Source: a candidate division WOR-3 bacterium (GTDB lineage Bacteria > Hydrothermota > Tepidihabitantia > Tepidihabitantales > JBDRVQ01). Taken from it: a stretch of 64,000 bases of DNA. Below, piece after piece: positions 1 to 12,803 of this stretch. A program made the position numbers and the translations under genes. Position 1 is the first letter of the stretch. The number at the start of each line of letters is the position of its first letter. The stretch is from assembly GCA_039801905.1 (NCBI GenBank), contig JBDRVQ010000002.1:3147-67146 (forward strand), given 5' to 3'. The notes below the pieces were generated by a model. That model was not told the origin of the DNA and ran no database searches. It worked only from the letters and a program-made list of their open reading frames with translations.

Positions 1-1120
1 TACTAATTATCTCCTTAGATGTTGTCCCCCGGACAATAGAATCATCAACAACCAGAATCTTTTTGCCAACGATTTCGCTCTTTATTGGATTTAATTTTTG
101 CCGGACCGATGCCCTTCTTAAATCCTGGGTCGGCATAATAAAAGTCCTTTGGATGTAGCGATTTTTAATTAAACCTTCTCTTAATTTCACCCCCAAAACT
201 TCCGCCACGGTTGTCGCGGCTGCCCGGGCGGTATCAGGAACCGGAATGACCACATCCGGTTTTATCCCTTCCTTTAGGCACTCTTTCCCTAAGTATTCAC
301 CCAACCGCAGACGCGCCTCGTAAACCGAAATTCCATCCAGAACCGAATCCGGACGGGCAAAATAGACATATTCAAAAATGCAAGGAGAAAGACTCCCTTT
401 TACTACCTCCTCTTGGAATATCTGGCGGTTGGTATCAATAAATATCACCTCACCCGGTTTCACATCTCTTTCCAATTTATAACCCAAGAGGTCAAGGCAA
501 ACGCTCTCCGAAGCAAAGATATAGGAATCTCCTTTCCTACCCAAGATTAGGGGTTTTATCCCCTTTGGATCCCGAAAAGCAAAAAGTCCTCTGCCAGCAA
601 TCAATCCGACACAGGAATAACTACCTTCCACTTTTCGGAAGACCTCCCTCACTCCCCGGGCAATTAAAGAAAAGATATTTTTCTGATTCTTCTTTTGTTG
701 CCGGAGAAGGGCATCGGCAAAGATATTTAAGATTACCTCAACATCCGAATAGGAATTTAAAGACCAGAGCCTCTTTTCGGTTAATTCCTGCCGGAGGCGA
801 AAGTAATTGGTAACATTCCCATTGTGCGCCATTGCGATACCATAGGGGTTGGTCACGAAAAAGGGTTGGGTATCCTCACTTCCCCCACCCCCAATCGTTG
901 GGTACCGAACATGCCCAATTCCGATATTCCCCTGCAATCGCCTCAGGTTTTTTTCCTTAAAAACATCTAAAACTAAACCAACCCCCTTTTTGAGGTGGAA
1001 CATTCCATTATGGGTAATAATACCTGCCCCATCCTGCCCCCGATGTTGGAGGGATAAAAGACCTTCGTAAATCTCTTGAACCACATTCCCTTTTCCTAAA
1101 ATTCCTACGACGCCGCACAT
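1..1120 (-). CDS. purF: Amidophosphoribosyltransferase, N-terminal ~373 aa; the C-terminus runs off the window start
   Basis: The reverse complement of 1081-1120 reads ATG TGC GGC.. = MCGVVGILGKGNVVQEIYEGLLSLQHRGQDGAGIITHNGMFHLKKG (Ntn Cys2, QHRGQD motif). The reverse complement of 1-54 reads LVVDDSIVRGTTSKEIIS (PRTase motif). The gene was not in the ORF track because it is open at the window edge. It lies 12 nt downstream of the GlmL-like gene. Confidence 0.85.
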   Translation of the reverse strand, partial: MCGVVGILGKGNVVQEIYEGLLSLQHRGQDGAGIITHNGMFHLKKGVGLVLDVFKEKNLRRLQGNIGIGHVRYPTIGGGGSEDTQPFFVTNPYGIAMAHNGNVTNYFRLRQELTEKRLWSLNSYSDVEVILNIFADALLRQQKKNQKNIFSLIARGVREVFRKVEGSYSCVGLIAGRGLFAFRDPKGIKPLILGRKGDSYIFASESVCLDLLGYKLERDVKPGEVIFIDTNRQIFQEEVVKGSLSPCIFEYVYFARPDSVLDGISVYEARLRLGEYLGKECLKEGIKPDVVIPVPDTARAAATTVAEVLGVKLREGLIKNRYIQRTFIMPTQDLRRASVRQKLNPIKSEIVGKKILVVDDSIVRGTTSKEIIS

Positions 1121-1132
1121 AATAACTTTTGC

Positions 1133-2962
1133 TTAAATTTTGGGATAGAGATTAAGGGCGAGCGCCCATTTTTTCAGTGCCTCAATCCGTTTATTTTTAT
1201 CGGAGGGCAAATTAAAGGGTCTTCTCCCCCGGCAGTCAACAATTATCCCACAGACGCCCCCTTCCATCTCCGTCTCTATCTTCTTCCCCTTTCCCGGACC
1301 CAAATCAAACCCTTTCTCCGGAATAATCTCCATTTTTACTCTTTCATTCAAACCGAGCGGAATTAAGATTATCTCACCAAAATTTACTATCCGGGTCTCA
1401 ATCCTCCCTTCGGGTTGGAAAATTTTTAGGGTGAGGCATTTCTGCCCTTCTTTTCCTTCGCCGAGGGGAGCGATACAGGTGCCTAATTTAATTAGGCAAT
1501 CCCTTTCAAAGACATCCCGGGCTGCTTTCTCGTGTACTGTGGAAAGGACACCCAGATGGGGCATCATAAAGATGCTATCCACTGCCAATTTCGTGATTCC
1601 CTCTGGTAGGAAGGCGTCAATCATCATTAAAGCCGATTGGATCCGCCTCGGGGCATGAGAGAGAATTCCACCGGAACCGACAATTAAATTTAAGGAGAGT
1701 AAATTGACTAAGGTTTCACCCGTGAGGGTCTGGGCAAAGGCATCGGAGATTGTTCTTGCCTGCTGAACCCCTTTCAAACCTACCGCCATTGTTTTATGCT
1801 GTTCTAAGGCAAGACGCAAAGCCTCACGCGCTAATGCCTGCTCAATCATTAAATCTTCTAAGGATTGGGGGATGGTCGTTGGTCTAATCATCTTATTCCG
1901 GATCCGATTCCTTAAATCCTTCTCGCTAATCTCAAAAGGCACCCAACGCATAATATTTTCCACACCTGCTTCCACTAAAACATTAGAGATACTATAAGAC
2001 ATTCCCAAATTGGCACTCACCGTTCGGTTGAAAACCAATGGTTCCCCTTCTGCCTGATGGTCACGAAACACGGAAAAGACATCGGTCGTTGCCCCACCAA
2101 TATCCACACCCAAAATTTCAATATTTTCACTCCGGCCAATCTTCTCAATCAAAAGACCAACCGCCCCCGGCGTAGGCATAATTGGCGCATCGGTCCAGGA
2201 TTGGAGTTTTTTATAACCCGGGGCATGAGCCATCACATGTTCCATATACAAATCGTGGATGCGGTTTCGGGCGGGCTGGAGGTTCTCCCTTTCTAAAACC
2301 GGTCTTATATTCTCCACAACCACCAGAGCGGTCTTATCCTTTAAGATCTTAATAATATGCTCCCGGGCATTGACATTTCCGGCATAAATCACGGGCAACT
2401 CATAACCGGTTCCGAAACGGGGACGAGGATCAGATGCCCGGATCAATTCCGCCAGTTCCACAACATGGGAGATGGTGCCGCCATCAACACCGCCGGAAAG
2501 GAGAATCATATCCGGTCTCAGATGCCTTATTCTTTCAATCTTCTCGTGGGGTAGCCGCCCATCATTAGAGGCGATCACATCCATCACAATCGCTCCGGCA
2601 CCTAATGCCGCCCTTTGGGCACTTTCCGCGGTCATGGTTAAGACCACTCCTGCCACCATCATCTGTAAACCGCCACCCGCCGAAGAGGTTGAGACATAGA
2701 TATCAATTCCTTCCTTCTCATTCTTATAAGGCTTAATCAAATTCTCACCGTCTAAAATCTTGACGCCGCTCAATTCCTCCACTTCCCGCGTGGCATTGAG
2801 CACGCCCTTGGTCACATCTTCAAAAGGCGCCTCAACGGTTGTCGGCGCTTCTCCCCGTACAACCAGCCGATACTCTTCGCCCCGCTTCTCAATTAAAATG
2901 GCTTTGGTGGTTGTTGAGCCACAATCCGTGGCTAAAATCCTTTTCAGATCTTCTTTAACCAT
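1133..2962 (-). CDS. GlmL/MutL-family (glutamate-mutase-L-like) actin-fold ATPase, 609 aa
   Basis: N-terminus ILATDCGSTTTKAILIE resembles the GlmL 'IDFGSTFTK' phosphate-1 loop. Further glycine-rich loops follow (DIGGATTDVFSV, SGGVDGGT). The start overlaps the stop of the upstream 91-aa ORF. I could not run a family search. Confidence 0.5.
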   Translation of the reverse strand: MVKEDLKRILATDCGSTTTKAILIEKRGEEYRLVVRGEAPTTVEAPFEDVTKGVLNATREVEELSGVKILDGENLIKPYKNEKEGIDIYVSTSSAGGGLQMMVAGVVLTMTAESAQRAALGAGAIVMDVIASNDGRLPHEKIERIRHLRPDMILLSGGVDGGTISHVVELAELIRASDPRPRFGTGYELPVIYAGNVNAREHIIKILKDKTALVVVENIRPVLERENLQPARNRIHDLYMEHVMAHAPGYKKLQSWTDAPIMPTPGAVGLLIEKIGRSENIEILGVDIGGATTDVFSVFRDHQAEGEPLVFNRTVSANLGMSYSISNVLVEAGVENIMRWVPFEISEKDLRNRIRNKMIRPTTIPQSLEDLMIEQALAREALRLALEQHKTMAVGLKGVQQARTISDAFAQTLTGETLVNLLSLNLIVGSGGILSHAPRRIQSALMMIDAFLPEGITKLAVDSIFMMPHLGVLSTVHEKAARDVFERDCLIKLGTCIAPLGEGKEGQKCLTLKIFQPEGRIETRIVNFGEIILIPLGLNERVKMEIIPEKGFDLGPGKGKKIETEMEGGVCGIIVDCRGRRPFNLPSDKNKRIEALKKWALALNLYPKI

Positions 2963-3230
2963 TTTTCCCTACCTTCTCCCTTTGATTTTCCTCTTCTTCA
3001 ATACTCTGAATTAACTTCTCTAAGTTATTTCTATCCTCTAATATCTTAACGAACTCTTCATAAGAATTCAAGGGTAGAAGGGAAGTGACTATCGGTTGAA
3101 AAAAGACTAAAACCTGGGAGCCGATAAACGATAAGGGTTTTGCCGATTCTAAAAGGACAATGGCGATAGGTGTCAGACGCAATTCCACAACCCTTTTCGC
3201 TACCTTAGTGATTAATTCCTCAGTAGTCAT
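2955..3230 (-). CDS. Hypothetical 91-aa protein, translationally coupled between gcvPB and the GlmL-like gene
   Basis: ORF with ATG at 3230 directly abutting the gcvPB stop (3227). Its stop overlaps the start of the GlmL-like gene. No recognisable motif. Confidence 0.4.
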   Translation of the reverse strand: MTTEELITKVAKRVVELRLTPIAIVLLESAKPLSFIGSQVLVFFQPIVTSLLPLNSYEEFVKILEDRNNLEKLIQSIEEEENQREKVGKNG

Positions 3231-4663
3231 TTTTGGTAGCGCAATATCAAATCCCTTGCCGCTTTTGCCTCGTCCAATCTCTTCACCGGTGTCTGATGGG
3301 GTGCCTTCTGCAAAATCTCAGGGTTGGTCTTTGCTTCCTCGGCAATCTGAATCATCCTCTTGATAAATTCATCCAAGACTTCCTTAGATTCGGTTTCTGT
3401 CGGTTCAATCATCAGAGCCTCGTGGACAATCAAAGGAAAATACATTGTTGGGGCATGTAAGCCAAAATCTAATAGGCGTTTTGCCACATCCAATGCCCTT
3501 ACTCCGTATTTCTTTAAGTTTTCTGCAGAAAAGACACATTCGTGCATCGTTGGTGTTTTATAGGGTAAATGATAATAGCCTTCCAAAGACTTCCGGATAT
3601 AGTTGGCATTCAAGACCGCAGATTCCGCACAATCCCTTAAACCATCAGGACCGAGCATCCGGATATAAGTGAAGGCTTTAACGAGAACCAAGAAATTACC
3701 ATAAAATGCTTGGATTTTCCCAATACTCTTTCCCTTTTCCCAATCAAATCTAAACTTCTCCCCTTCTCTTATCAATCTGGGGATTGGTAGATACGGTTCC
3801 AAAAACTTTTTGGCGCAGACTGGACCAGCTCCTGGACCACCACCGCCGTGAGGGGTGGAAAAGGTCTTATGGAGGTTGAGATGGACCAGGTCAAATCCGG
3901 CATCACCCGGTCGGTGATAACCCAAATAGGCGTTAAGATTGGCTCCGTCTAAATATAAAAGGGTGCCGTAGGAATGGCAAATCTCGGCAATCTCTAATAT
4001 CCTCTCCTCAAAGATTCCTAAGGTATTGGGATTGGTCACCATCAAACAGGCGCAATCTTCACCAATCCTCTCTCTCAGTTTCGTTAAGGAAATCTGCCCG
4101 GTTTCATCAGAAGGAATAACTTCTACCCGATGGCCCGACATCGTGACACTTGCCGGATTGGTCCCGTGGGCGGAGTCCGGAATTAAAATCCGTTCCCTTT
4201 TCTCCCCTCTATCCTTAAAGTATTTCCGGACAATTAAAAGGGAAGTGAACTCACCATGGGCACCCGCCGCCGGTTGCAGGGTAATCGCATCCATTCCCAC
4301 AATGGTCAGAAGGAGTTTGCCCAATTCGCTCATTAAAAATAGATTTCCCTGAACCGTCTCTTCCTCTTGCCAGGGGTGGGTATTGGTAAAAGATGGAAAA
4401 GAGGCGATGGTCTCGTTCACCTTGGGATTATACTTCATCGTACAGGAACCGAGGGGATAAAATCCCTTATCCACATGGTGATTAAGGGTGGAAAGGTTGA
4501 CAAAATGCCTCACCACTTCTACTTCGCTCACCTCGGGGAGGGGTAAATTTTCTCTCAGATATTCTTTTGGTATAAAATCTGTCAGTTCCTTTTCTGGCAA
4601 ATCCAGGGGTGGGAGATAATAGCCCCTCTTCCCCGGCGTAGAATGTTCAAAGATTGTCTTCAT
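3227..4663 (-). CDS. gcvPB: Glycine dehydrogenase (decarboxylating) subunit 2
   Basis: 478 aa; typical GcvPB N-terminus ([18 protein letters not shown]). Glycine-rich GGGGPG loop and sequence are characteristic of GcvPB; the PLP lysine was not individually identified. The ATGA start overlaps the upstream ORF. Confidence 0.9.
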
Positions 4664-4857
4664 AGTCTCTTATAGGCTTTAAGGAAATTACTAATTGAAC
4701 GGTCGTAAGTTTTTTCTAAGTCCGGAGGGAAGAAGCAACCGGGGAGTTCTCCATTTTTCCGATGGTATAAAATACATTCGCAGCATCTACCCTTTTTAGA
4801 GCAAGGCTCATAAGTGCAGGTGCAATTTTTTAAGTTTTTATTGAGATTACATTCCAT
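4660..4857 (-). CDS. Cysteine-rich 65-aa protein (9 Cys; CxCx4Cx5CCxC..C pattern), possible zf-like 'cysteine-rich small domain'
   Basis: [43 protein letters not shown]. Overlaps the gcvPA stop by 11 nt and the gcvPB start by 4 nt. Its position inside a coupled operon argues it is real. Confidence 0.5.
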
Positions 4858-6205
4858 AACGAGCTCCTATTTCCTTTAAAGCGGAAACGAAGAAATCCAA
4901 CTCCTCTTTTGTCCTTTTTTCCGTAACCGCAACCAACAGAAGGTCTTCCCAATCCTCATTAAATCTTCCCAGATGGACACCTCCGAAAATCTTTTTCTCC
5001 CTTAAATCTTTAAGAATTTTGGGCCAGATTCCTTTTTTCCCTTTCAGGACAAATTCTTTGAAAAAGGGAAGGGGAAATGCCCGGCGGAAATTGGTCTCTT
5101 CTTCAATCCTTTCTAAGAGATAATGGGCTTTATGGAGACATTGACTCGCCACCTCTCTTAAACCCCTTTTCCCCAAAAGGGAGAGATAGATGGTCGCGGC
5201 TAAGGCGCAGAGCGCAGAATTGGTGCAGATATTGGAAGTTGCCCTTTCTCTCTTTATGTGTTGTTCTCTCGTCTGTAAGGTTAAGACATAACCCGGGTTG
5301 CCATCTCGGTCAATTGTCTTCCCAACCAACCTGCCAGGCATAAAACGAATGAACTCCTTCTTCGTGGTAAAAAGGCCGAGGTAAGGACCACCAAAAGAGG
5401 GAGGGATTCCTAAGGATTGCCCTTCCCCAACCGCAATGTCTGCTCCGTAATCACCCGGTGGTAAAATGATACCTAAAGAGATTGGGTCGCAAGAAAGAAG
5501 GAAGAGACAATCGTTTTTATGAATAATTGTTGCCATTTCTTTTACCGGTTCTAAAATGCCGAAGAAATTGGGATTTTGGACGACCACCGCCGAGAAGGAA
5601 GGGTCAACTATTTTCTCCAAAATATCTAACTCAATCCGGCCCTTGGGAGTTGGTAAATAAACTGGTTCAATTTCGGTTCCTTCTAAGTAGGTCTCAATCA
5701 CCATTTTATAAAGGGGATTGAGGGAATCAGCCAAAAGAATCTTCTTTTTCTTCTTAATCGCCACCGCCATCAGACAACCTTCGGCTAAGGCACTCGCCCC
5801 ATCGTACATTGAGGCATTGGCAATCTCCATATTGAAAAGTTCACAAATTAAAGATTGGAACTCAAAGATAGTTTGTAAAGTCCCCTGAGAGACTTCCGCC
5901 TGGTATGGGGTGTAGGCGGTATAATACTCGCTCCGCTGTAAGATATGGGGGATGACTGCGGGGATGATGTGGTCATAGACCCCACCGCCTAAAAAGTTAA
6001 TGAACTCATCAGTTGTCTCATTCTTCTCGCCAATCGCTTTTACCAATTTTCTCACCTCAAACTCGGAAAGAGACGGAGGGAGAGGGAGGTCCCCTTTCAA
6101 TAAAATTTTCTCTGGGATTTGGGAAAAGAGTTCAGAAAGAGAGGAGACGCCAATCCGGGCAAGCATCTCTCTCTTCTCCTCTTCGGTATGGGGGGTATAT
6201 TTCAT
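4847..6205 (-). CDS. gcvPA: Glycine dehydrogenase (decarboxylating) subunit 1
   Basis: 452 aa with GcvPA-type sequence ([16 protein letters not shown]..). 4-nt overlap with gcvH. Confidence 0.9.
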
Positions 6206-6600
6206 ACTTCTCCAATGTGCTTCTTATAATCTTCGGCTTTGAGAAGATTTTTCAATTCTTCTTTATTCTTAATTCTAATTTTAATAATCCAACCTCTACC
6301 ATAAGGCTCCTGATTAATAATTCCGGGGTCATTTTTTATTAAATCATTCACTTGGATTATTTCTCCGGAAACGGGTAGATACAAATCAGAAACCGTCTTC
6401 ACCGCTTCAATTGTCCCAAACCTCTCCCCTTGGTTTAACTCTTTTCCCATCTCCGTAATGTCCACATAAACGATATCGGAAAGTTCTTTCTGGGCAAAGT
6501 CAGTAATCCCGCAAAGGGCGGTGTTATCCTCTATTTTCACCCATTCGTGGGTTTTGGTATAAAATAAATCATCAGGGACCAAACTCATAATTCCTCCCAA
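6202..6600 (-). CDS. gcvH: Glycine cleavage system H protein (lipoyl carrier)
   Basis: 132 aa; TKTHEWVKIEDN..EAVKTVSDL carries the lipoyl-lysine motif. Confidence 0.9.
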   Translation of the reverse strand: MGGIMSLVPDDLFYTKTHEWVKIEDNTALCGITDFAQKELSDIVYVDITEMGKELNQGERFGTIEAVKTVSDLYLPVSGEIIQVNDLIKNDPGIINQEPYGRGWIIKIRIKNKEELKNLLKAEDYKKHIGEV

Positions 6601-7698
6601 TTATCCTCTTTTTAGGCTACCCATTTTATAAAAAGGTGTCTTAACAACTACCCCTTTTAATTCCTCTCCCCGAGGGGAAAGGAAGAAGAGGGGGGTACCA
6701 ATTTCCGAGTACTCTATTGCCACATAGCCCAAACCAATCGGTTTCTTCAAAGATGGGGAAAAACTGCCACTGGTAACAAAACCAATCTCCTCTCTCTTTT
6801 CGTTCAGAATCTTAAAATGCTCTCGGGCAACCCTCTCTCCTGCCACTTCAAAGCCGACTAACTTTCTCTTCAAGCCTCCTTTCTTTATTCCTTCTAAGGC
6901 AGGCTTACCGATAAAATCTCCCTTATTCAATTTGACAACAAATCCGAGACCCGCAGAAAGAGGATCGGTCTCCGCGGTGATATCATTGCCGTAGAGGCAA
7001 TATCTCATCTCCAACCTTAAAGTATTTCGGGCGCCTAAACCACAAGGGACTAAATTAAATTCTTTGCCCGCATTAAAGAGTGCCGGCCAAATCTTTGGTG
7101 CCTCGTCCTTGGAAAAATATAACTCAAAACCATCTTCCCCGGTATAACCGGTGCGTGAGACCAAACATTCTACCTCTGCGACCTTTACCCTCTTTGCCCA
7201 ATAGAATTTTATTTCCGAGAGTGAAGAGTTGGTTATTTTACCTAAAATCTCTTCTGCCTTTGGGCCTTGGAGGGCAAGTTGGGCAATCTCAAAAGTTCGG
7301 TCAATAATTTCTACTTCCCCAGAGAGATTCTTTTTTAACCAATTTATATCCTTTTCCCGATTTGAGGCATTAACTACTAATAAGAAATGGTCTTCTAAAT
7401 TATAAACCACTAAGTCATCAACAATCCCGCCGCTCTCATAACAGAAGACCGAATATTGCGCCTGGTAGGGCTTTAACTCCTTTACCGCATTGGTCGTGAC
7501 AAAGTCAACAAAATTTATAGCATCCTTTCCCCTAATCTCTACCCTTCCCATATGGGAGACATCAAAGAGACCACAAGAGTTCCTTACCGCCAGATGTTCG
7601 GGAATTATCCCTTGATAATATAAAGGCATCTCAAACCCAAAAAAATCAATCATCTTCCCCTGCCATTGGCAGTGGAAATCATAAAAAGGAGTTCTCAT
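6601..7698 (-). CDS. gcvT: Aminomethyltransferase (glycine cleavage T protein)
   Basis: 365 aa; GcvT-like throughout (MRTPFYDFH..GARNTLRLEM). Confidence 0.9.
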   Translation of the reverse strand: MRTPFYDFHCQWQGKMIDFFGFEMPLYYQGIIPEHLAVRNSCGLFDVSHMGRVEIRGKDAINFVDFVTTNAVKELKPYQAQYSVFCYESGGIVDDLVVYNLEDHFLLVVNASNREKDINWLKKNLSGEVEIIDRTFEIAQLALQGPKAEEILGKITNSSLSEIKFYWAKRVKVAEVECLVSRTGYTGEDGFELYFSKDEAPKIWPALFNAGKEFNLVPCGLGARNTLRLEMRYCLYGNDITAETDPLSAGLGFVVKLNKGDFIGKPALEGIKKGGLKRKLVGFEVAGERVAREHFKILNEKREEIGFVTSGSFSPSLKKPIGLGYVAIEYSEIGTPLFFLSPRGEELKGVVVKTPFYKMGSLKRG

Positions 7699-7710
7699 CT
7701 TTAATTTTTA

Positions 7711-7738
7711 ATAATAATAAAATATTAGAGATAGTCAA
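7711..7738 (-). promoter_or_regulatory. Candidate proximal sigma70-type promoter for the gcv operon (TTGACT-16-TATTAT, 12 nt before the ATG)
   Basis: Minus-strand read: ccTTGACTatctctaatattttatTATTATtaaaaattaaagATG. The DNA is AT-rich, so a chance match is possible. Confidence 0.35.
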
Positions 7739-7959
7739 GGATTTTTATTGGCAATAGGAGAGAAATGGGTTTTAACCCCTTCCTCAATTATTCGCTTAAA
7801 GGGATATTGAGTTCAGATATACTTCTTTTTCTATAAGAGGCGAGTAAGATTCTCATTTATCTTTGGTGGATGGGTTTTATATTCCCTTTCGGTCCTTGGC
7901 AAGCTGGGGAGAGGTATTTCCGGAGGCAATTTCCCACATAATTTGAATATATCTCCAGT

Positions 7960-8234
7960 ATCCAGATTAGGCTCCCATTTTTACTTAGGATTAAAGCCTT
8001 AGTTAAACACAGGATTAAACTCTTTATTATCCCTTCTATTAAACTCTGAATTAGACTTCCAATTATGCCCTCTTTTAGAGTATCTATTAAATCCTCAATT
8101 AAACCCTTTATTAAATCTCCGATTAAGTCTAAAATTATACCTTTTCTTAGACCTTATATTATGCCTTTCATTAAATCCCTGATACCATCCCCTGTATGCT
8201 ACACCCCTTTTTATAAAAATAAACCCCTCCTGTT
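7960..8234 (-). repeat. Composite intergenic element, copy 1: ~50-bp conserved core (8181-8234) plus ~220-bp array of ~12-bp-phased YTAAT(T) repeats (7963-8180)
   Basis: Core GATACCATCCCCTGTATGCTACACCCCTTTTTATAAAAATAAACCCCTCCTGTT on plus is the reverse complement of the core seen at 24419-24471 and 56503-56553, and is identical in orientation to 41098-41152. The array has TAAT/ATTAA motifs every 11-13 bp. Confidence 0.85.
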
Positions 8235-8359
8235 TGATAAAGTTCCTATTATTTAATGACATTTTAAGTTAACTATTAATTACCCGATAATACCTCCTTA
8301 ATCTCTCTTCTGATATAAGGGTTGGGATTAGAACCCAATAACTTACCTTAATAACTTCT

Positions 8360-8470
8360 TTTAACTTCTTCATAGCCCTCTATAATAAATACGGAAATAC
8401 CCCCCAATTTCTGACACTAAATTTCCCCCCTTTTTTATAAGTCTTTGATTTATAATAACTTATTTACTTT
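8360..8470. repeat. Second conserved intergenic module shared with 41215-41330
   Basis: CATAGCCCTCTATAATAAATACGGAAATACCCCCCAATTTCTGACAC is shared between the two loci. Flanking TACCCGATAA and CTTTGATTT..AACTTATTT also match. Confidence 0.7.
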
Positions 8471-8611
8471 AATGGAACTTAAAAAAATAATGTACTGCTT
8501 AGAGAGATTGTGAGAAATGTCCGGATTAATCGGCCTCATACATTTTTGAGTATTCTTAGAGATAAACCCCTAAAGTGGTAATAATCACTGTTTAACGCTT
8601 GCAGGAACATT

Positions 8612-8639
8612 TTGACAAAAAGTTAATGGTTTATATAAT
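8612..8639 (+). promoter_or_regulatory. Candidate promoter TTGACA-16-TATAAT upstream of the GH18 gene
   Basis: tTTGACAaaaagttaatggtttaTATAATt, 31 nt before the ATG at 8670. Confidence 0.45.
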
Positions 8640-8669
8640 TTATATAATACGGAATGAGAATTAGAGAAT

Positions 8670-10553
8670 TTGACGGCAAAAATAGGGTATGATAGCCAAA
8701 TCTTCTATTTTTTTCCTCCTTTCTTTTCTTTTCTTTTTGGTCAAACGCTTCCCAAAACCCAACACTGGTGGGAAGCAGAGAGGCACCGAAAGGAAGTAGA
8801 AGAAAGACAACCTTCGTCTATAATCAAACCGAGTCCATTGCGACTAAGGAAATTACCATCAATCACGCGGGAAATTTATGGCTATAACCCATACTGGGTT
8901 GATGAACGCTGGTTTCACTACGATTTATTAACTCGCATCGGTCTATTTGATGTGACTCTGGAACCAGATGGTTCAATCACCAATGCCCATAACTTTCCCG
9001 GTCGTTGGGCAAGAGTGATTGACCGGGCGCACCGCAATGGTGTGAAGTGCGAAATGGTGGCAACCTGTTTTGGCTGGTGGAATATTCACCAAGCAATCCG
9101 GGCTCCAGCCGCCATTCCTAATTTAGTAGCGTTGGCGGAATCGTCCGGAGTAGACGGAATTAATATTGATTTTGAAGATATTTTAAGTTCGGACCGCGAT
9201 ACAGTAGTCCTTTTTATGCAAAGGCTATCCGCCGCGTGCTGGGCTTCTGGCCTGGAATTGACGATGGCAACGATGCCCTTAGATTTCGCCAACGCCTATG
9301 ATTTCCGGGCGCTTGCCGAAACCACCGATGGTCTTTTTATTATGGGCTACAACTTCCACTGGCAAAGTTGTCCAGAGGCAGGACCAGTTGCCCCGCTCTT
9401 TGGCTGGGAATATTACGGAAATTTGCAAATGACCCTAAATGAATACCTGAACGAAATTGGCAACGGAAGAAAACTTTATTTAGGGGTGCCTTACTATGGT
9501 TTTCAGTGGCCAACCTTAGCGGAGACCACCCATTCTCGAACTTCTGGTCCGGGTGAGGTAATTTACTACGCAGAGGCGTCAAACCGGGCAAGAGAATATG
9601 GTTACCTCTGGGATGAGGAATCCCAGACACCTTGGTACCGATTTCACAGCGGGGTCTGGAATCAGGGTTGGTTTGACGATGATTCCAGTCTCTTTCTTAA
9701 ATACCAAGAAGTCCACGAACACGATCTCTTAGGCGCCGGTATTTGGGCGCTCGGCTATGATGGTCCTCGTCGAGAACTTTGGGCAACGCTGCGCGAGAGC
9801 TTTAACCGACCGCAGGAAGATTTCACTAACGGTGATTGTGAAATTTGGCAACTTGATACATCGGCAGTACCCAGCGATACCAGTCCGAATCCTTTAGGCT
9901 GGTATGAGGGGCGTAAAGCCCAATACCGACGCGAGACAGAAATCGTGCGAACCGGGAGCGCAAGCATTCGTCACATCCCGGATTCTCTCGGTTATCCTTG
10001 GCCGGTCACTTCCAGACTATTTCAGGATGTATTGGTGACACCCGGTCTTTTCTATGAGTTCTCCGGCTGGTCTTATAAGAATGACCACCGGGGTAACCGG
10101 ACTTATCTTCTTCTCCAGTGGTTTGACTCCACCCATAGGGTAATTGGCAGTGTCTCTTCCCAAGTGCTCAGTACCGACAGCGCTTCTTGGCGCTTTTTGA
10201 CCACCGGCCGGGTTATTGCTCCTTCCCATTCCCAATTCGCCCGCCTCTCCCCTTTAATTGAAGGCTGGGGCGGTGCGGACTTTTGGGACGACTTAGACTT
10301 CAGTCCGGGTAATAAGATTGAAGAAACAACCAGTCTTGATACCTGGGTTTTAAATCTCCCCACAGTTGTTCACCACAATTTAAGAATGCCCCTAATTAAA
10401 AGTAATTACCGAGTAGAACTTTTAAGCGCCACCGGTCAAAAGGTGATGGATTTGTCACCTGGTGGCAACAATATTTCCTTCCTACCAGCAGGCATCTATT
10501 TTATAAAAATCAATCCCGGAAACATCGCCAAAAAAATAATTTTAGCAGAATAG
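8670..10553 (+). CDS. Glycoside hydrolase family 18 (chitinase-like) protein with C-terminal T9SS sorting domain
   Basis: VDGINIDFEDI matches the GH18 DxxDxDxE catalytic motif. C-terminus ..NISFLPAGIYFIKINPGNIAKKIILAE is a Por/T9SS-CTD-like tail. The start and frame near 8670-8800 are uncertain (see findings). Confidence 0.65.
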   Translation: MTAKIGYDSQIFYFFPPFFSFLFGQTLPKTQHWWEAERHRKEVEERQPSSIIKPSPLRLRKLPSITREIYGYNPYWVDERWFHYDLLTRIGLFDVTLEPDGSITNAHNFPGRWARVIDRAHRNGVKCEMVATCFGWWNIHQAIRAPAAIPNLVALAESSGVDGINIDFEDILSSDRDTVVLFMQRLSAACWASGLELTMATMPLDFANAYDFRALAETTDGLFIMGYNFHWQSCPEAGPVAPLFGWEYYGNLQMTLNEYLNEIGNGRKLYLGVPYYGFQWPTLAETTHSRTSGPGEVIYYAEASNRAREYGYLWDEESQTPWYRFHSGVWNQGWFDDDSSLFLKYQEVHEHDLLGAGIWALGYDGPRRELWATLRESFNRPQEDFTNGDCEIWQLDTSAVPSDTSPNPLGWYEGRKAQYRRETEIVRTGSASIRHIPDSLGYPWPVTSRLFQDVLVTPGLFYEFSGWSYKNDHRGNRTYLLLQWFDSTHRVIGSVSSQVLSTDSASWRFLTTGRVIAPSHSQFARLSPLIEGWGGADFWDDLDFSPGNKIEETTSLDTWVLNLPTVVHHNLRMPLIKSNYRVELLSATGQKVMDLSPGGNNISFLPAGIYFIKINPGNIAKKIILAE

Positions 10554-10612
10554 TTTGATAAATGCCTTCTCGCTTTATTGACTTTTATTAATACCTTAAT
10601 ATATTATTAAGT

Positions 10613-11770
10613 ATGGGCTCATATTATTCTTCCCCACGCCATTACCTCTTTGCCCCGATCCTTGGAGTTTTTATTCTCCTCTTCTCCCTCCTCGGCTTCG
10701 GACGAAGTGAAGGAGAGAGGGAGGCAATGTTTTATAAAAAGTTGGAAGGGAATAAAGTTGTCTGCGAACTCTGCCCCCGCTACTGCTTAATTGAACCGCA
10801 TAAAAGGGGGTTCTGCCGGAACCGGGAAAACAGGAACGGTAGACTCTATTCCATCGTCTATGCTTATCCCTGCTCTGTCAATCGGGAGCCAATTGAGAAG
10901 GCACCATTTTTTCACTTTCTCCCCGGAGAACTCCGTCTCACCCTGGCAACCGTCTCCTGCAATCAACGTTGTAAATACTGTCAGAATTGGGAGATCTCCC
11001 AACGTAGTTTAGAAGAAGTACCCAGTTTCTATCTCCCTCCCGAAGAGGTGGTGAAGACCGCCAAGAAGTGGGGGGTGAAGATAATCTGCTTCACTTATAC
11101 CGAACCAATCGTCTTTTATGAATATATGTATGATATCGCCAAGTTGGCAAGAAAGGAAGGGATAAAATCAGTTGTGGTCACCGGGGGCTATATTAACGAA
11201 ATCCCTCTGAGGGAATTGTGTAAGGTGGTTGATGGAATAAAGGTTGATCTGAAGGGTTTTAACGAAGATTTTTACGAAAAGACCTGCTCCTCAACCCTCC
11301 AACCAGTCCTGGATGCCTTAAAGATAATTAGAGAGGAAGGAGTCTGGTTGGAAATTGTCAATCTGGTGGTACCTTCTCTCAATGATGACTTAAAAGAGAT
11401 AAAGAAGATGTGCCAGTGGATAAAGGAAAACTTGGGAGAAGATGTTCCTTTACATTTTACCCGCTTCTTCCCCAATTATAAGTTACAGCAACTACCGCCG
11501 ACCCCAATCAAGACCTTAGAAGCCGCGCACCAGGTGGCCAGGGAATGTGGTTTGAAGTATGTCTATCTGGGAAACTGCCCGGGGCATAAGTTTGAGAATA
11601 CCTATTGTCCGAAGTGCGGTACTCTTTTGATCAAGAGGGTCGGTATCACAATGACCGAAAACCACCTGAAAGATGGGAAATGTCCAAAATGCGGGGAGAA
11701 GATTCCGGGGATTTTTACTTTGATCCAAAAGAATATGACCTCTGCGGCAAGAAGAAAAAATGAAGAGTAA
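10613..11770 (+). CDS. AmmeMemoRadiSam-system-type radical SAM enzyme (AmrS-like). An alternative start at 10727 (MFYKKLEG) would remove a hydrophobic N-terminal extension
   Basis: KVVCELCPRYCLIEPHKRGFCRNRENRNGRLY..EPIEKAPFFHFLPG..SCNQRCKYCQNWEIS. This is the N-terminal Cys cluster plus the CxxxCxxC radical-SAM motif typical of AmrS/PflA-like activases. Confidence 0.65.
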   Translation: MGSYYSSPRHYLFAPILGVFILLFSLLGFGRSEGEREAMFYKKLEGNKVVCELCPRYCLIEPHKRGFCRNRENRNGRLYSIVYAYPCSVNREPIEKAPFFHFLPGELRLTLATVSCNQRCKYCQNWEISQRSLEEVPSFYLPPEEVVKTAKKWGVKIICFTYTEPIVFYEYMYDIAKLARKEGIKSVVVTGGYINEIPLRELCKVVDGIKVDLKGFNEDFYEKTCSSTLQPVLDALKIIREEGVWLEIVNLVVPSLNDDLKEIKKMCQWIKENLGEDVPLHFTRFFPNYKLQQLPPTPIKTLEAAHQVARECGLKYVYLGNCPGHKFENTYCPKCGTLLIKRVGITMTENHLKDGKCPKCGEKIPGIFTLIQKNMTSAARRKNEE

Positions 11771-12803
11771 GGTTTATTTTCTGCCGTTAGATAGCGGTAA
11801 AGACCTGAACGCTAATCGGGCGAAATATGTCTCATTTCTCAATTTTGTCTTTAATGAGACAAATTTTTTCTCTTCTATTCCCTCCCACAAAAAAATTGGG
11901 ATAAAAGTTCATTTCGGAGAGGAGGGGAGAGAAAATTACCTAAATCCGGAATACGTTCGGGAAGTTGTTCTCCTTTGCGGCGGTTCCGGCCTCCAGCCCT
12001 ATCTCTTAGAGACCGCCACCCTCTATCGGGGAAAGCGGCAGGAAGAGAAGAGCCATTTTGAATTAGCGCAGCAACACGGTTTTACCCTGCAGAAGGTTTT
12101 AGCCCCTATCATCTTTGTTGACGGGAAGCGGGGGGAGTTTTATTCCGAAATCAACGGTAAAAAAATTGGCCGCCGCTTGAAGGGGTTTAAATTCTTAATT
12201 AACCTCGCCCACTTTAAGGGACATATGGTTACCGGTTTTGGGGGGGCATTAAAGAATATCGGAATGGGTTTGGCGGCAAAAGGTGGGAAATTAGATATGC
12301 ATTCGGTCTCTATCCCCTACATTGATGAAAGTAAATGTTCCTTTTGCGGCACCTGTGCGGAATATTGTCCCAACGAGGCAATCATCTTTCGCCAGGGTCG
12401 CTATCTCATAAATAACAAATGCGTGGGGTGTAGCGGCTGTCTCACCATTTGCCCCAATTATGCAATTCAGATTAAATGGGATTCCAGTTCTGAAGAGTTA
12501 CAAAAAAAAGTTGCCGAATATGCCCATTCCATCTTAAAAGACCGGTTCTGCCTCCACTTCAACTTTTTAATTGACATCACCCCTAATTGTGATTGCTTTC
12601 CGAAAACCGAAGAGCCCATTGTTAAAGACATTGGGATTCTCGCTTCCTTTGACCCAGTCGCCTTAGATCAGGCGGGCTACGATATGGTTAAGGATAACAT
12701 TAAAGCCATCTATCCCCAAATTAATCCGGAGATTGTCTTAAAGGTGGGAGAGGAGTTAGGGATTGGTTCTCGGGAATACGAACTCTGCCCTTATGAAATT
12801 TAA
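11760..12803 (+). CDS. DUF362-family protein with 2x[4Fe-4S] ferredoxin domain
   Basis: CSFCGTCAEYCP and CVGCSGCLTICP cluster motifs. N-terminal region typical of DUF362. Overlaps the amrS stop. Confidence 0.5.
   Translation: MKSKVYFLPLDSGKDLNANRAKYVSFLNFVFNETNFFSSIPSHKKIGIKVHFGEEGRENYLNPEYVREVVLLCGGSGLQPYLLETATLYRGKRQEEKSHFELAQQHGFTLQKVLAPIIFVDGKRGEFYSEINGKKIGRRLKGFKFLINLAHFKGHMVTGFGGALKNIGMGLAAKGGKLDMHSVSIPYIDESKCSFCGTCAEYCPNEAIIFRQGRYLINNKCVGCSGCLTICPNYAIQIKWDSSSEELQKKVAEYAHSILKDRFCLHFNFLIDITPNCDCFPKTEEPIVKDIGILASFDPVALDQAGYDMVKDNIKAIYPQINPEIVLKVGEELGIGSREYELCPYEI

Follow-up and report, generated by a model that had tools for sequence, protein, structure and literature searches.

A cysteine-rich protein of 65 amino acids, belonging to the uncharacterised family DUF6485 (PF20095), is encoded between gcvPA and gcvPB, the genes for the two glycine decarboxylase subunits, in a candidate division WOR-3 bacterium (GenBank assembly GCA_039801905.1). 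We identified the gene in a 64,000-nucleotide (nt) stretch of contig JBDRVQ010000002.1 (positions 3,147 to 67,146, forward strand), called the window below, and all coordinates refer to it. Based on gene order and gene junctions in related genomes, the arrangement gcvT-gcvH-gcvPA-DUF6485-gcvPB-orf91-MutL-like ATPase appears to be a conserved, translationally coupled operon of WOR-3 bacteria. As far as could be found, neither this seven-gene operon nor a parallel coupling of DUF6485 to the lipoyl synthase gene lipA in Omnitrophota-type loci has been described. We tentatively propose, at somewhat less than an even chance, that the protein serves anaerobes in the lipoyl-H-protein cycle, as a small redox or adaptor protein with a metal-thiolate centre, and is a general-purpose component wired into different operons by different lineages.

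A mini-protein gene inside the WOR-3 gcv operon

The mini-protein gene lies on the minus strand at 4660..4857, exactly where a first-pass annotation of this DNA had placed a 65-amino-acid open reading frame (ORF) between gcvPA and gcvPB, and is supported by the ORF itself, a Pfam match, homologues and an AlphaFold2 model. It starts with ATG, and a Shine-Dalgarno sequence, AGGAG, can be read 6 nt 5' of the start codon at 4857 (4868-4864, minus strand), within the 3' end of gcvPA. Overlap with both neighbours, also claimed in that annotation, was borne out: the last 11 nt of gcvPA, up to the end of its stop codon at 4847, contain the mini-protein start, and the TGA stop codon shares an ATGA with the gcvPB start codon at 4663 (4-nt overlap; junction CTATGAAG). 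The latter has the appearance of a classic translational-coupling signature. A GGAG-like motif also lies 5' of the DUF6485 orthologue in most of the other gcv-linked loci. Relative to the closest orthologues, the gene carries more synonymous (23-24) than non-synonymous (9-12) codon differences, a pattern that, together with homology and the Shine-Dalgarno site, ruled out a spurious ORF. We regard 4660..4857 as a real gene that, judging from its sequence, encodes a strongly constrained small protein.

All seven genes of the operon are on the minus strand, with overlapping or near-zero junctions. The first is gcvT (aminomethyltransferase; 6601..7698; Pfam GCV_T, E = 1.6e-92), followed by gcvH, encoding the lipoyl carrier H-protein (6202..6600; GCV_H, 5.2e-44). 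The genes flanking DUF6485 were correctly named at the outset, gcvPA (glycine dehydrogenase subunit 1; 4847..6205) matching GDC-P (5.5e-130) and gcvPB (subunit 2; 3227..4663) matching both GcvP2_C (7.9e-30) and GDC-P. Downstream is orf91 (2955..3230), a conserved ORF of 91 amino acids (91-106 in orthologues) that overlaps gcvPB by 4 nt and the next gene by 8 nt and has no significant Pfam or NCBIfam match, the best being Leptin (15.6 bits, E = 0.015, under the 25-bit cut-off). The conserved block ends with a gene for a 609-amino-acid, actin-fold ATPase-like protein of the MutL/GlmL family (PF13941; 1133..2962; Pfam MutL, 1.5e-130).

We examined 80 species-representative genome loci and 80 metagenome loci carrying DUF6485, together with six loci (L165-L170) found via the MutL-like protein. 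The order gcvPA-DUF6485-gcvPB is present in 7 of the 80 genome loci (L001-L004, L008, L009, and L045), five of them titled WOR-3, with gcvPA 49-71% and DUF6485 64-84% identical to their counterparts in the window. L169 has the same seven-gene order as the window. So do L166 and L170, in which the 201 nt that seem empty between gcvPA and gcvPB contain a DUF6485 ORF missed by the gene calls. The run from DUF6485 through the MutL-like gene is complete in the window, L002, L003, L008, L009, L166, L169, and L170; contig ends account for the partial operons in L001, L004, and L045. In the variant locus L168, a diaminopimelate dehydrogenase gene takes the upstream place of gcvT, gcvH, and gcvPA, and an uncalled DUF6485 ORF abuts gcvPB, the small ORF and the MutL-like gene. 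Retention of DUF6485 with gcvPB in the absence of gcvPA indicates that the gene travels with gcvPB. Counting this variant, the wedged position recurs in 11 other WOR-3-type loci. Orthologues of orf91, 51-83% identical, occupy the same position in L002, L003, L008, L009, L045, L166, and L168-L170, and all WOR-3-type loci of sufficient extent have both orf91 and the MutL-like gene behind gcvPB.

The insertion had been called unexpected on the grounds that gcvPA and gcvPB are normally adjacent, and it is unusual: an Elusimicrobiota control locus (L036) has the two genes side by side, their matched regions being separated by only about 75 nt. Over the operon, a public WOR-3 contig (CBFGKE010000006.1 of GCA_965649285.1) matches the window at 98-100% identity, and there the 65-amino-acid gene is called and tagged PF20095. 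Elsewhere it can be missed. Intact, uncalled DUF6485 ORFs were found in annotation "gaps" of 200-320 nt before gcvPB at 5995-6210 in L166, 5103-5303 in L168 and about 5000-5209 in L170, those of L166 and L170 having an apparent TTG start just 5' of the R-E-C N-terminus. As precomputed gene calls passed over the ORF in three related contigs, the family is evidently under-annotated.

Regulation of the operon does not seem to be riboswitch-based, since no Rfam family was detected in window positions 1-12000 at E<=0.1, and hence no glycine riboswitch 5' of gcvT. A promoter-like site lies 5' of gcvT at 7738-7711 on the minus strand (weak evidence); promoter and terminator scans gave nothing above chance. 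About 970 nt of AT-rich intergenic DNA (7699-8669) lie between gcvT and a divergently transcribed GH18-family gene, containing several short, imperfect 12-nt tandem repeats (8014-8167) and, on the plus strand, a perfect -35/-10 match at 8612-8639. Just downstream of the GH18 gene, on the plus strand at 10613-12803, are genes for a radical S-adenosylmethionine (SAM) protein (385 amino acids) and, after a short overlap, for a protein with DUF362 and 4Fe-4S ferredoxin domains (347 amino acids).

The DUF6485 family and its predicted metal centre

Pfam aligns residues 7-63 of the mini-protein with positions 2-66 of the 70-residue DUF6485 model (E = 2.8e-9; 37.8 bits against a cut-off of 24). No other Pfam family matches at E<=10 and no NCBIfam model at E<=0.01. 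With DUF6485 as its only match, the protein falls outside the "cysteine-rich small domain" families to which it had been likened. That it might have no homologues anywhere had also been considered in the first-pass annotation; a search of 5.8 billion proteins returned 449 at E<=1e-3. The 120 of these that were listed are 62-86 amino acids long and 63-84% identical, and all carry PF20095; many bear the NCBI name "DUF6485 family protein," the UniRef name being "cytosolic protein." Taken more widely, identity to annotated members is 60-84%. The listed proteins represent WOR-3, Elusimicrobiota, Omnitrophota, Chloroflexota, Atribacterota, Nitrospirota, Bacillota (Moorella, Halothermothrix) and several archaeal lineages, which are overwhelmingly anaerobic groups.

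An exhaustive profile search of 1.84 billion representatives produced 515 DUF6485 clusters, of which the 150 listed are all at most 132 amino acids long and none is fused to another domain. The sole multi-domain form among these listed representatives is P0121 (128 amino acids), a tandem duplication of DUF6485 in a single polypeptide. N-terminal extensions in the family resemble miscalled starts rather than signal peptides, and the typical member is a stand-alone cytosolic protein of about 65 amino acids. No match was found in phages, and the family is nearly absent from plasmids, the one case being a plasmid-labelled Chloroflexota replicon. We found no paper on "DUF6485" or "PF20095." In its length, its nine Cys/His positions, its TYDRS motif, and its full-length match above threshold, the window protein is an ordinary full-length member of this catalogued family. 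Nothing sets it apart from its relatives; what is special is its genomic position before gcvPB in WOR-3.

The mini-protein has eight cysteines (C3, C12, C14, C19, C25, C26, C28, and C41) and not the nine first counted, the ninth conserved ligand-type residue being His32. The reported spacing, CxCx4Cx5CCxC...C, is correct and corresponds to C12, C14, C19, C25, C26, C28, and C41, leaving C3 as the eighth cysteine. All nine residues fall within 39 positions. Seven of them (C3, C12, C25, C26, C28, H32, and C41) never vary in a 121-sequence alignment, where the other two, C14 and C19, show conservation of 90% or more. Conservation extends to the rest of the protein, with G23, P39, F43, E48, and R53 invariant and Y16, E27, Y31, G36, E37, G40, P44, T50, Y51, D52, S54, and F58 at least 90% conserved, and includes an E-K/R-TYDRS motif (T50-Y-D-R-S54). 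The full ligand pattern, CCCCCCCHC, is present in 212 of 270 family sequences, distant representatives included, and most of the exceptions lack only N-terminal columns and are probably fragments or miscalled starts. Co-loss of cysteine pairs, which might indicate ligands sharing a metal, was uninformative because all nine are essentially invariant.

Because the eight cysteines and one histidine are invariant across bacteria and archaea, the protein almost certainly folds around a metal-thiolate centre, and its earlier description as a metal- or redox-binding micro-protein is very probably right as far as sequence can tell. An AlphaFold2 model of four short helices is compact and confident (predicted local distance difference test 91.1, predicted template modelling score 0.72) and resembles no solved structure: a sequence profile search of the PDB at E<=10 and a Foldseek search of the model against the PDB each gave 0 matches, and a structure search of BFVD returned only noise (E>=8). 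A set of nine ligands would be compatible with a trinuclear Zn3-type cluster or with an Fe-S cluster accompanied by extra thiols, and the bias toward anaerobes mildly favours an oxygen-sensitive centre.

Thiolate-cluster zinc domains with about nine ligands include the Zn3Cys9 CXC/pre-SET domains and the bacterial metallothionein SmtA (Zn4Cys9His2). DUF6485 is like them in ligand number and density (nine Cys/His in about 40 residues) and in using CxC and CC motifs, not paired CxxC knuckles. It differs in having no detectable sequence or fold similarity to them, a largely helical model and highly conserved non-ligand residues. A metallothionein-like buffer, storing or detoxifying metal ions in a Zn, Cd, or Cu thiolate cluster analogous to that of SmtA, is thus one way to read so dense a set of ligands, and a few neighbours concern metal homeostasis: CutA1 is encoded directly upstream in Edwardsbacteria, a cation-efflux protein upstream in one locus, and, at a distance of about 2 kb in Moorella, ArsR regulators and a heavy-metal P-type ATPase. 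We think this very unlikely. The non-cysteine framework, with its five aromatic residues and TYDRS, is very strongly conserved, unlike that of metallothioneins; no metallothionein family matches in Pfam at E<=10, nor any PDB entry by sequence or fold; and most loci have no adjacent metal-sensor gene.

Genomic contexts and a possible role in the lipoyl-H-protein cycle

Outside the WOR-3-type loci no gcv gene neighbours DUF6485, either in the other 73 genome loci or in any of the 80 metagenome loci. The association with gcvP, for which a check of other genomes had been proposed, is conserved before gcvPB across WOR-3 and absent elsewhere in the set. No single neighbour was found to dominate across the family, about half of the neighbour set having been tallied by BLAST clustering only, and contexts are lineage-specific. 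The most notable of them is an Omnitrophota-type operon, (ackA-panD-)def-DUF6485-lipA-trxB, found in five genome loci (L032, L042, L051, L055, and L061) and six metagenome loci (among them L118, L138, L144, L154, and L155), in which the identity of LipA was confirmed by an NCBIfam equivalog. The DUF6485 stop and lipA start overlap or abut in five of the seven such junctions inspected: three share ATGA (L055, L118, and L154), one overlaps by 11 nt (L051) and one has a gap of 0 nt (L144). In the other two, L042 and L138, the genes are 43 nt apart. To judge from these junctions, DUF6485 is thus probably co-translated with lipoyl synthase and a thioredoxin-reductase-like gene. In one further locus (L021) lipA lies about 0.9 kb upstream of DUF6485.

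Other lineages place the gene differently. It precedes RidA in Elusimicrobia (5 loci) and follows mnmE in Nitrospirota; in Dehalococcoidia it stands between a gene for a methionine-synthase-like protein of 341 amino acids and a nucleoside triphosphatase (NTPase) gene. It follows CutA1 in Edwardsbacteria, whose protein is 81% identical to that of the window, and a flavin reductase gene in Moorella, and is monocistronic in Halothermothrix. The gcv-linked DUF6485 proteins are 60-84% identical to one another and 65-81% identical to members in other contexts, so that there is no gcv-specialised subfamily. As they are no closer to each other than to the rest, the molecular function is probably the same everywhere.

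The role in the lipoyl-H-protein cycle that we tentatively propose draws on these two couplings. GcvP and LipA both act on the lysine-bound octanoyl or lipoyl arm of the H-protein, and a TrxB-type reductase gene follows lipA, which is why a redox or adaptor role is favoured. The same lipoyl theme runs through the gcvPB coupling of WOR-3, the def-DUF6485-lipA-trxB operon of Omnitrophota, the lipA gene near DUF6485 in L021, and a lipoate ligase gene beside a MutL-like orthologue in L167 (below). With its stop codon fused to the start of gcvPB, DUF6485 would be expected to be synthesised alongside the pyridoxal phosphate-carrying beta subunit of glycine decarboxylase. Possible tasks include electron transfer to or from dihydrolipoyl-H, or support for enzymes at which the H-protein arm docks; as a general-purpose component the protein would be placed in different operons by different lineages.

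A functional analogy, and no more, is available in Eubacterium acidaminophilum, in which glycine decarboxylase is reportedly coupled to the thioredoxin system, and in the canonical L-protein (dihydrolipoamide dehydrogenase). A small thiol-rich protein could, together with the TrxB-type reductase of Omnitrophota, shuttle dihydrolipoyl-H electrons in a comparable way; DUF6485 differs from the thioredoxin system in having neither a thioredoxin fold nor a WCGPC motif. No lpd gene is present in the WOR-3 gcv operon, as seen on the near-identical public contig. Many normal gcv operons also do without one.

Several points weigh against a lipoyl-related role. The literature gives no measured metal, partner, or activity for any DUF6485 member, and we know of no requirement for a metalloprotein by GcvP or by the canonical glycine cleavage system. 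Contexts beyond WOR-3 and Omnitrophota are heterogeneous (RidA, mnmE, NTPase, CutA1, flavin reductase, monocistronic), and the Omnitrophota operon itself holds unrelated housekeeping genes (ackA, panD, def). The lipoyl link comprises two solid lineages and one weak one and, the theme having been chosen post hoc, is not statistically compelling. The lack of a gcv-specialised subfamily counts on the same side, and synteny inertia alone could be enough to keep a gene in place between those of two essential subunits.

The main rival explanation is that DUF6485 is a generic housekeeping zinc-cluster protein, for example a structural one or one associated with nucleic acids or translation, which is unrelated to glycine cleavage and came to lie in the gcv operon by historical accident, being kept there because a gene is difficult to remove from inside an essential operon. 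It would account for contexts that vary by phylum and often include translation or transfer RNA (tRNA) genes (def, mnmE, aIF2-gamma, tRNA methyltransferase, and pseudouridine synthases), for gcv-linked members that form no distinct group, for the absence of domain fusions among the 150 listed representatives, and for the basic charge of the window protein (12 K+R against 7 D+E). Translation genes are so common, however, that chance alone predicts them as neighbours. Accident also sits poorly with a placement that is kept, always tightly spaced or overlapping, while gcvPA has diverged to 49-71% identity, with the persistence of DUF6485 beside gcvPB after the L168 rearrangement, and with an independent tight coupling to lipA, whose product is another enzyme acting on the H-protein. 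We consider the housekeeping explanation a serious possibility, only slightly less probable than the lipoyl-related role.

The lipA coupling in Omnitrophota, the anaerobe bias, and the several radical-SAM or Fe-S proteins among the neighbours would suit a small Fe-S protein of anaerobes, acting as a low-potential electron donor or as a cluster carrier. Such a carrier might, for example, re-load the auxiliary cluster of LipA, and its presence in gcv operons would then reflect the need for lipoylated H-protein. In Escherichia coli the sacrificial auxiliary cluster of LipA is re-loaded by NfuA. Like carriers of the NfuA/IscU type, DUF6485 is small and Cys-rich, and in Omnitrophota it is encoded directly before lipA and coupled to it; its eight cysteines could hold one or two clusters. 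It has no homology to Nfu or IscU, though, and no ferredoxin-type CxxCxxCxxxC motif; Fer4, Nfu, and HiPIP profiles do not match in Pfam even at E<=10, and the model shares its fold with no Fe-S protein in the PDB. Moreover, the partner in the WOR-3 coupling is gcvPB, whose product has no Fe-S cluster, rather than a lipoylation gene, and a search of the 64-kb window found no lipA, lplA, or trxB and no second DUF6485 copy. On balance we judge an Fe-S function of this kind unlikely.

The MutL-like ATPase and a possible accessory module

The first-pass annotation had tied the mini-protein to cobalamin, as a "cysteine-rich small domain" protein partnered with a downstream GlmL-like chaperone of B12-dependent mutases. 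The operon, which is conserved, does encode a PF13941 (MutL/GlmL-family) protein. The protein scores far under the NCBIfam equivalog cut-off for GlmL (NF040745, 239 against 475 bits), however, and also under those for Or-4 (NF040744, 237 against 600) and TIGR01319 (168 against 204). Its orthologues, 73-100% identical across the 120 clusters listed, are almost all in metagenome-assembled genomes of WOR-3, and one of these, represented by CBFGKE010000006.1, has a 100% identical entry. A literature search on GlmL/PF13941 found nothing relevant.

No B12-binding or mutase gene is present within 7-10 kb in the six related loci L165-L170, the window-like contig included, nor is any such family listed among the neighbours tallied for other DUF6485 loci, where the nearest approach is one methionine-synthase-like neighbour (S-methyl_trans + Pterin_bind). 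Most DUF6485 genes have no MutL-like neighbour at all, and no Cys-rich family other than DUF6485 matched the mini-protein. In one related contig a MutL-like orthologue that is not next to gcv genes (L167, 7001-9544; 75% identical) is immediately followed by an LplA-type lipoate-protein ligase gene (PF21948/PF03099). Taken with the gcv and lipA contexts, this points to lipoyl chemistry rather than cobalamin. The cobalamin model is largely refuted, and we give it hardly any credence.

It is also conceivable, if improbable, that DUF6485, orf91, and the MutL-like ATPase of about 600 amino acids work together in WOR-3 as an accessory module, so far overlooked, of the two-subunit glycine decarboxylase, and that DUF6485 more broadly represents a new class of metal-thiolate partner for GcvP and LipA as enzymes handling the lipoyl arm of the H-protein. 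Such a module could depend on both ATP and a metal cluster, and might replace the L-protein, couple dihydrolipoyl-H to ferredoxin- or thioredoxin-type carriers, or activate or repair the P-protein. If real, it would define a variant anaerobic glycine cleavage/synthase system.

Should the lipoyl link prove false, the cobalamin interpretation of this operon would still have been corrected. If it is true, DUF6485 would be a new component of one of the most studied multienzyme systems, and would be relevant to the question of how glycine cleavage, or the reductive glycine pathway, operates in anaerobes in the absence of a classical L-protein. The metalloprotein-like DUF6485 family is very strongly conserved, with 60-80% identity even from one bacterial or archaeal phylum to another, but has neither a solved structure nor an assigned function, nor any literature. 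Its fixed place before gcvPB in WOR-3 and before lipA in Omnitrophota offers a first experimental handle on the family, in the H-protein, lipoyl, and glycine-cleavage machinery of anaerobes.

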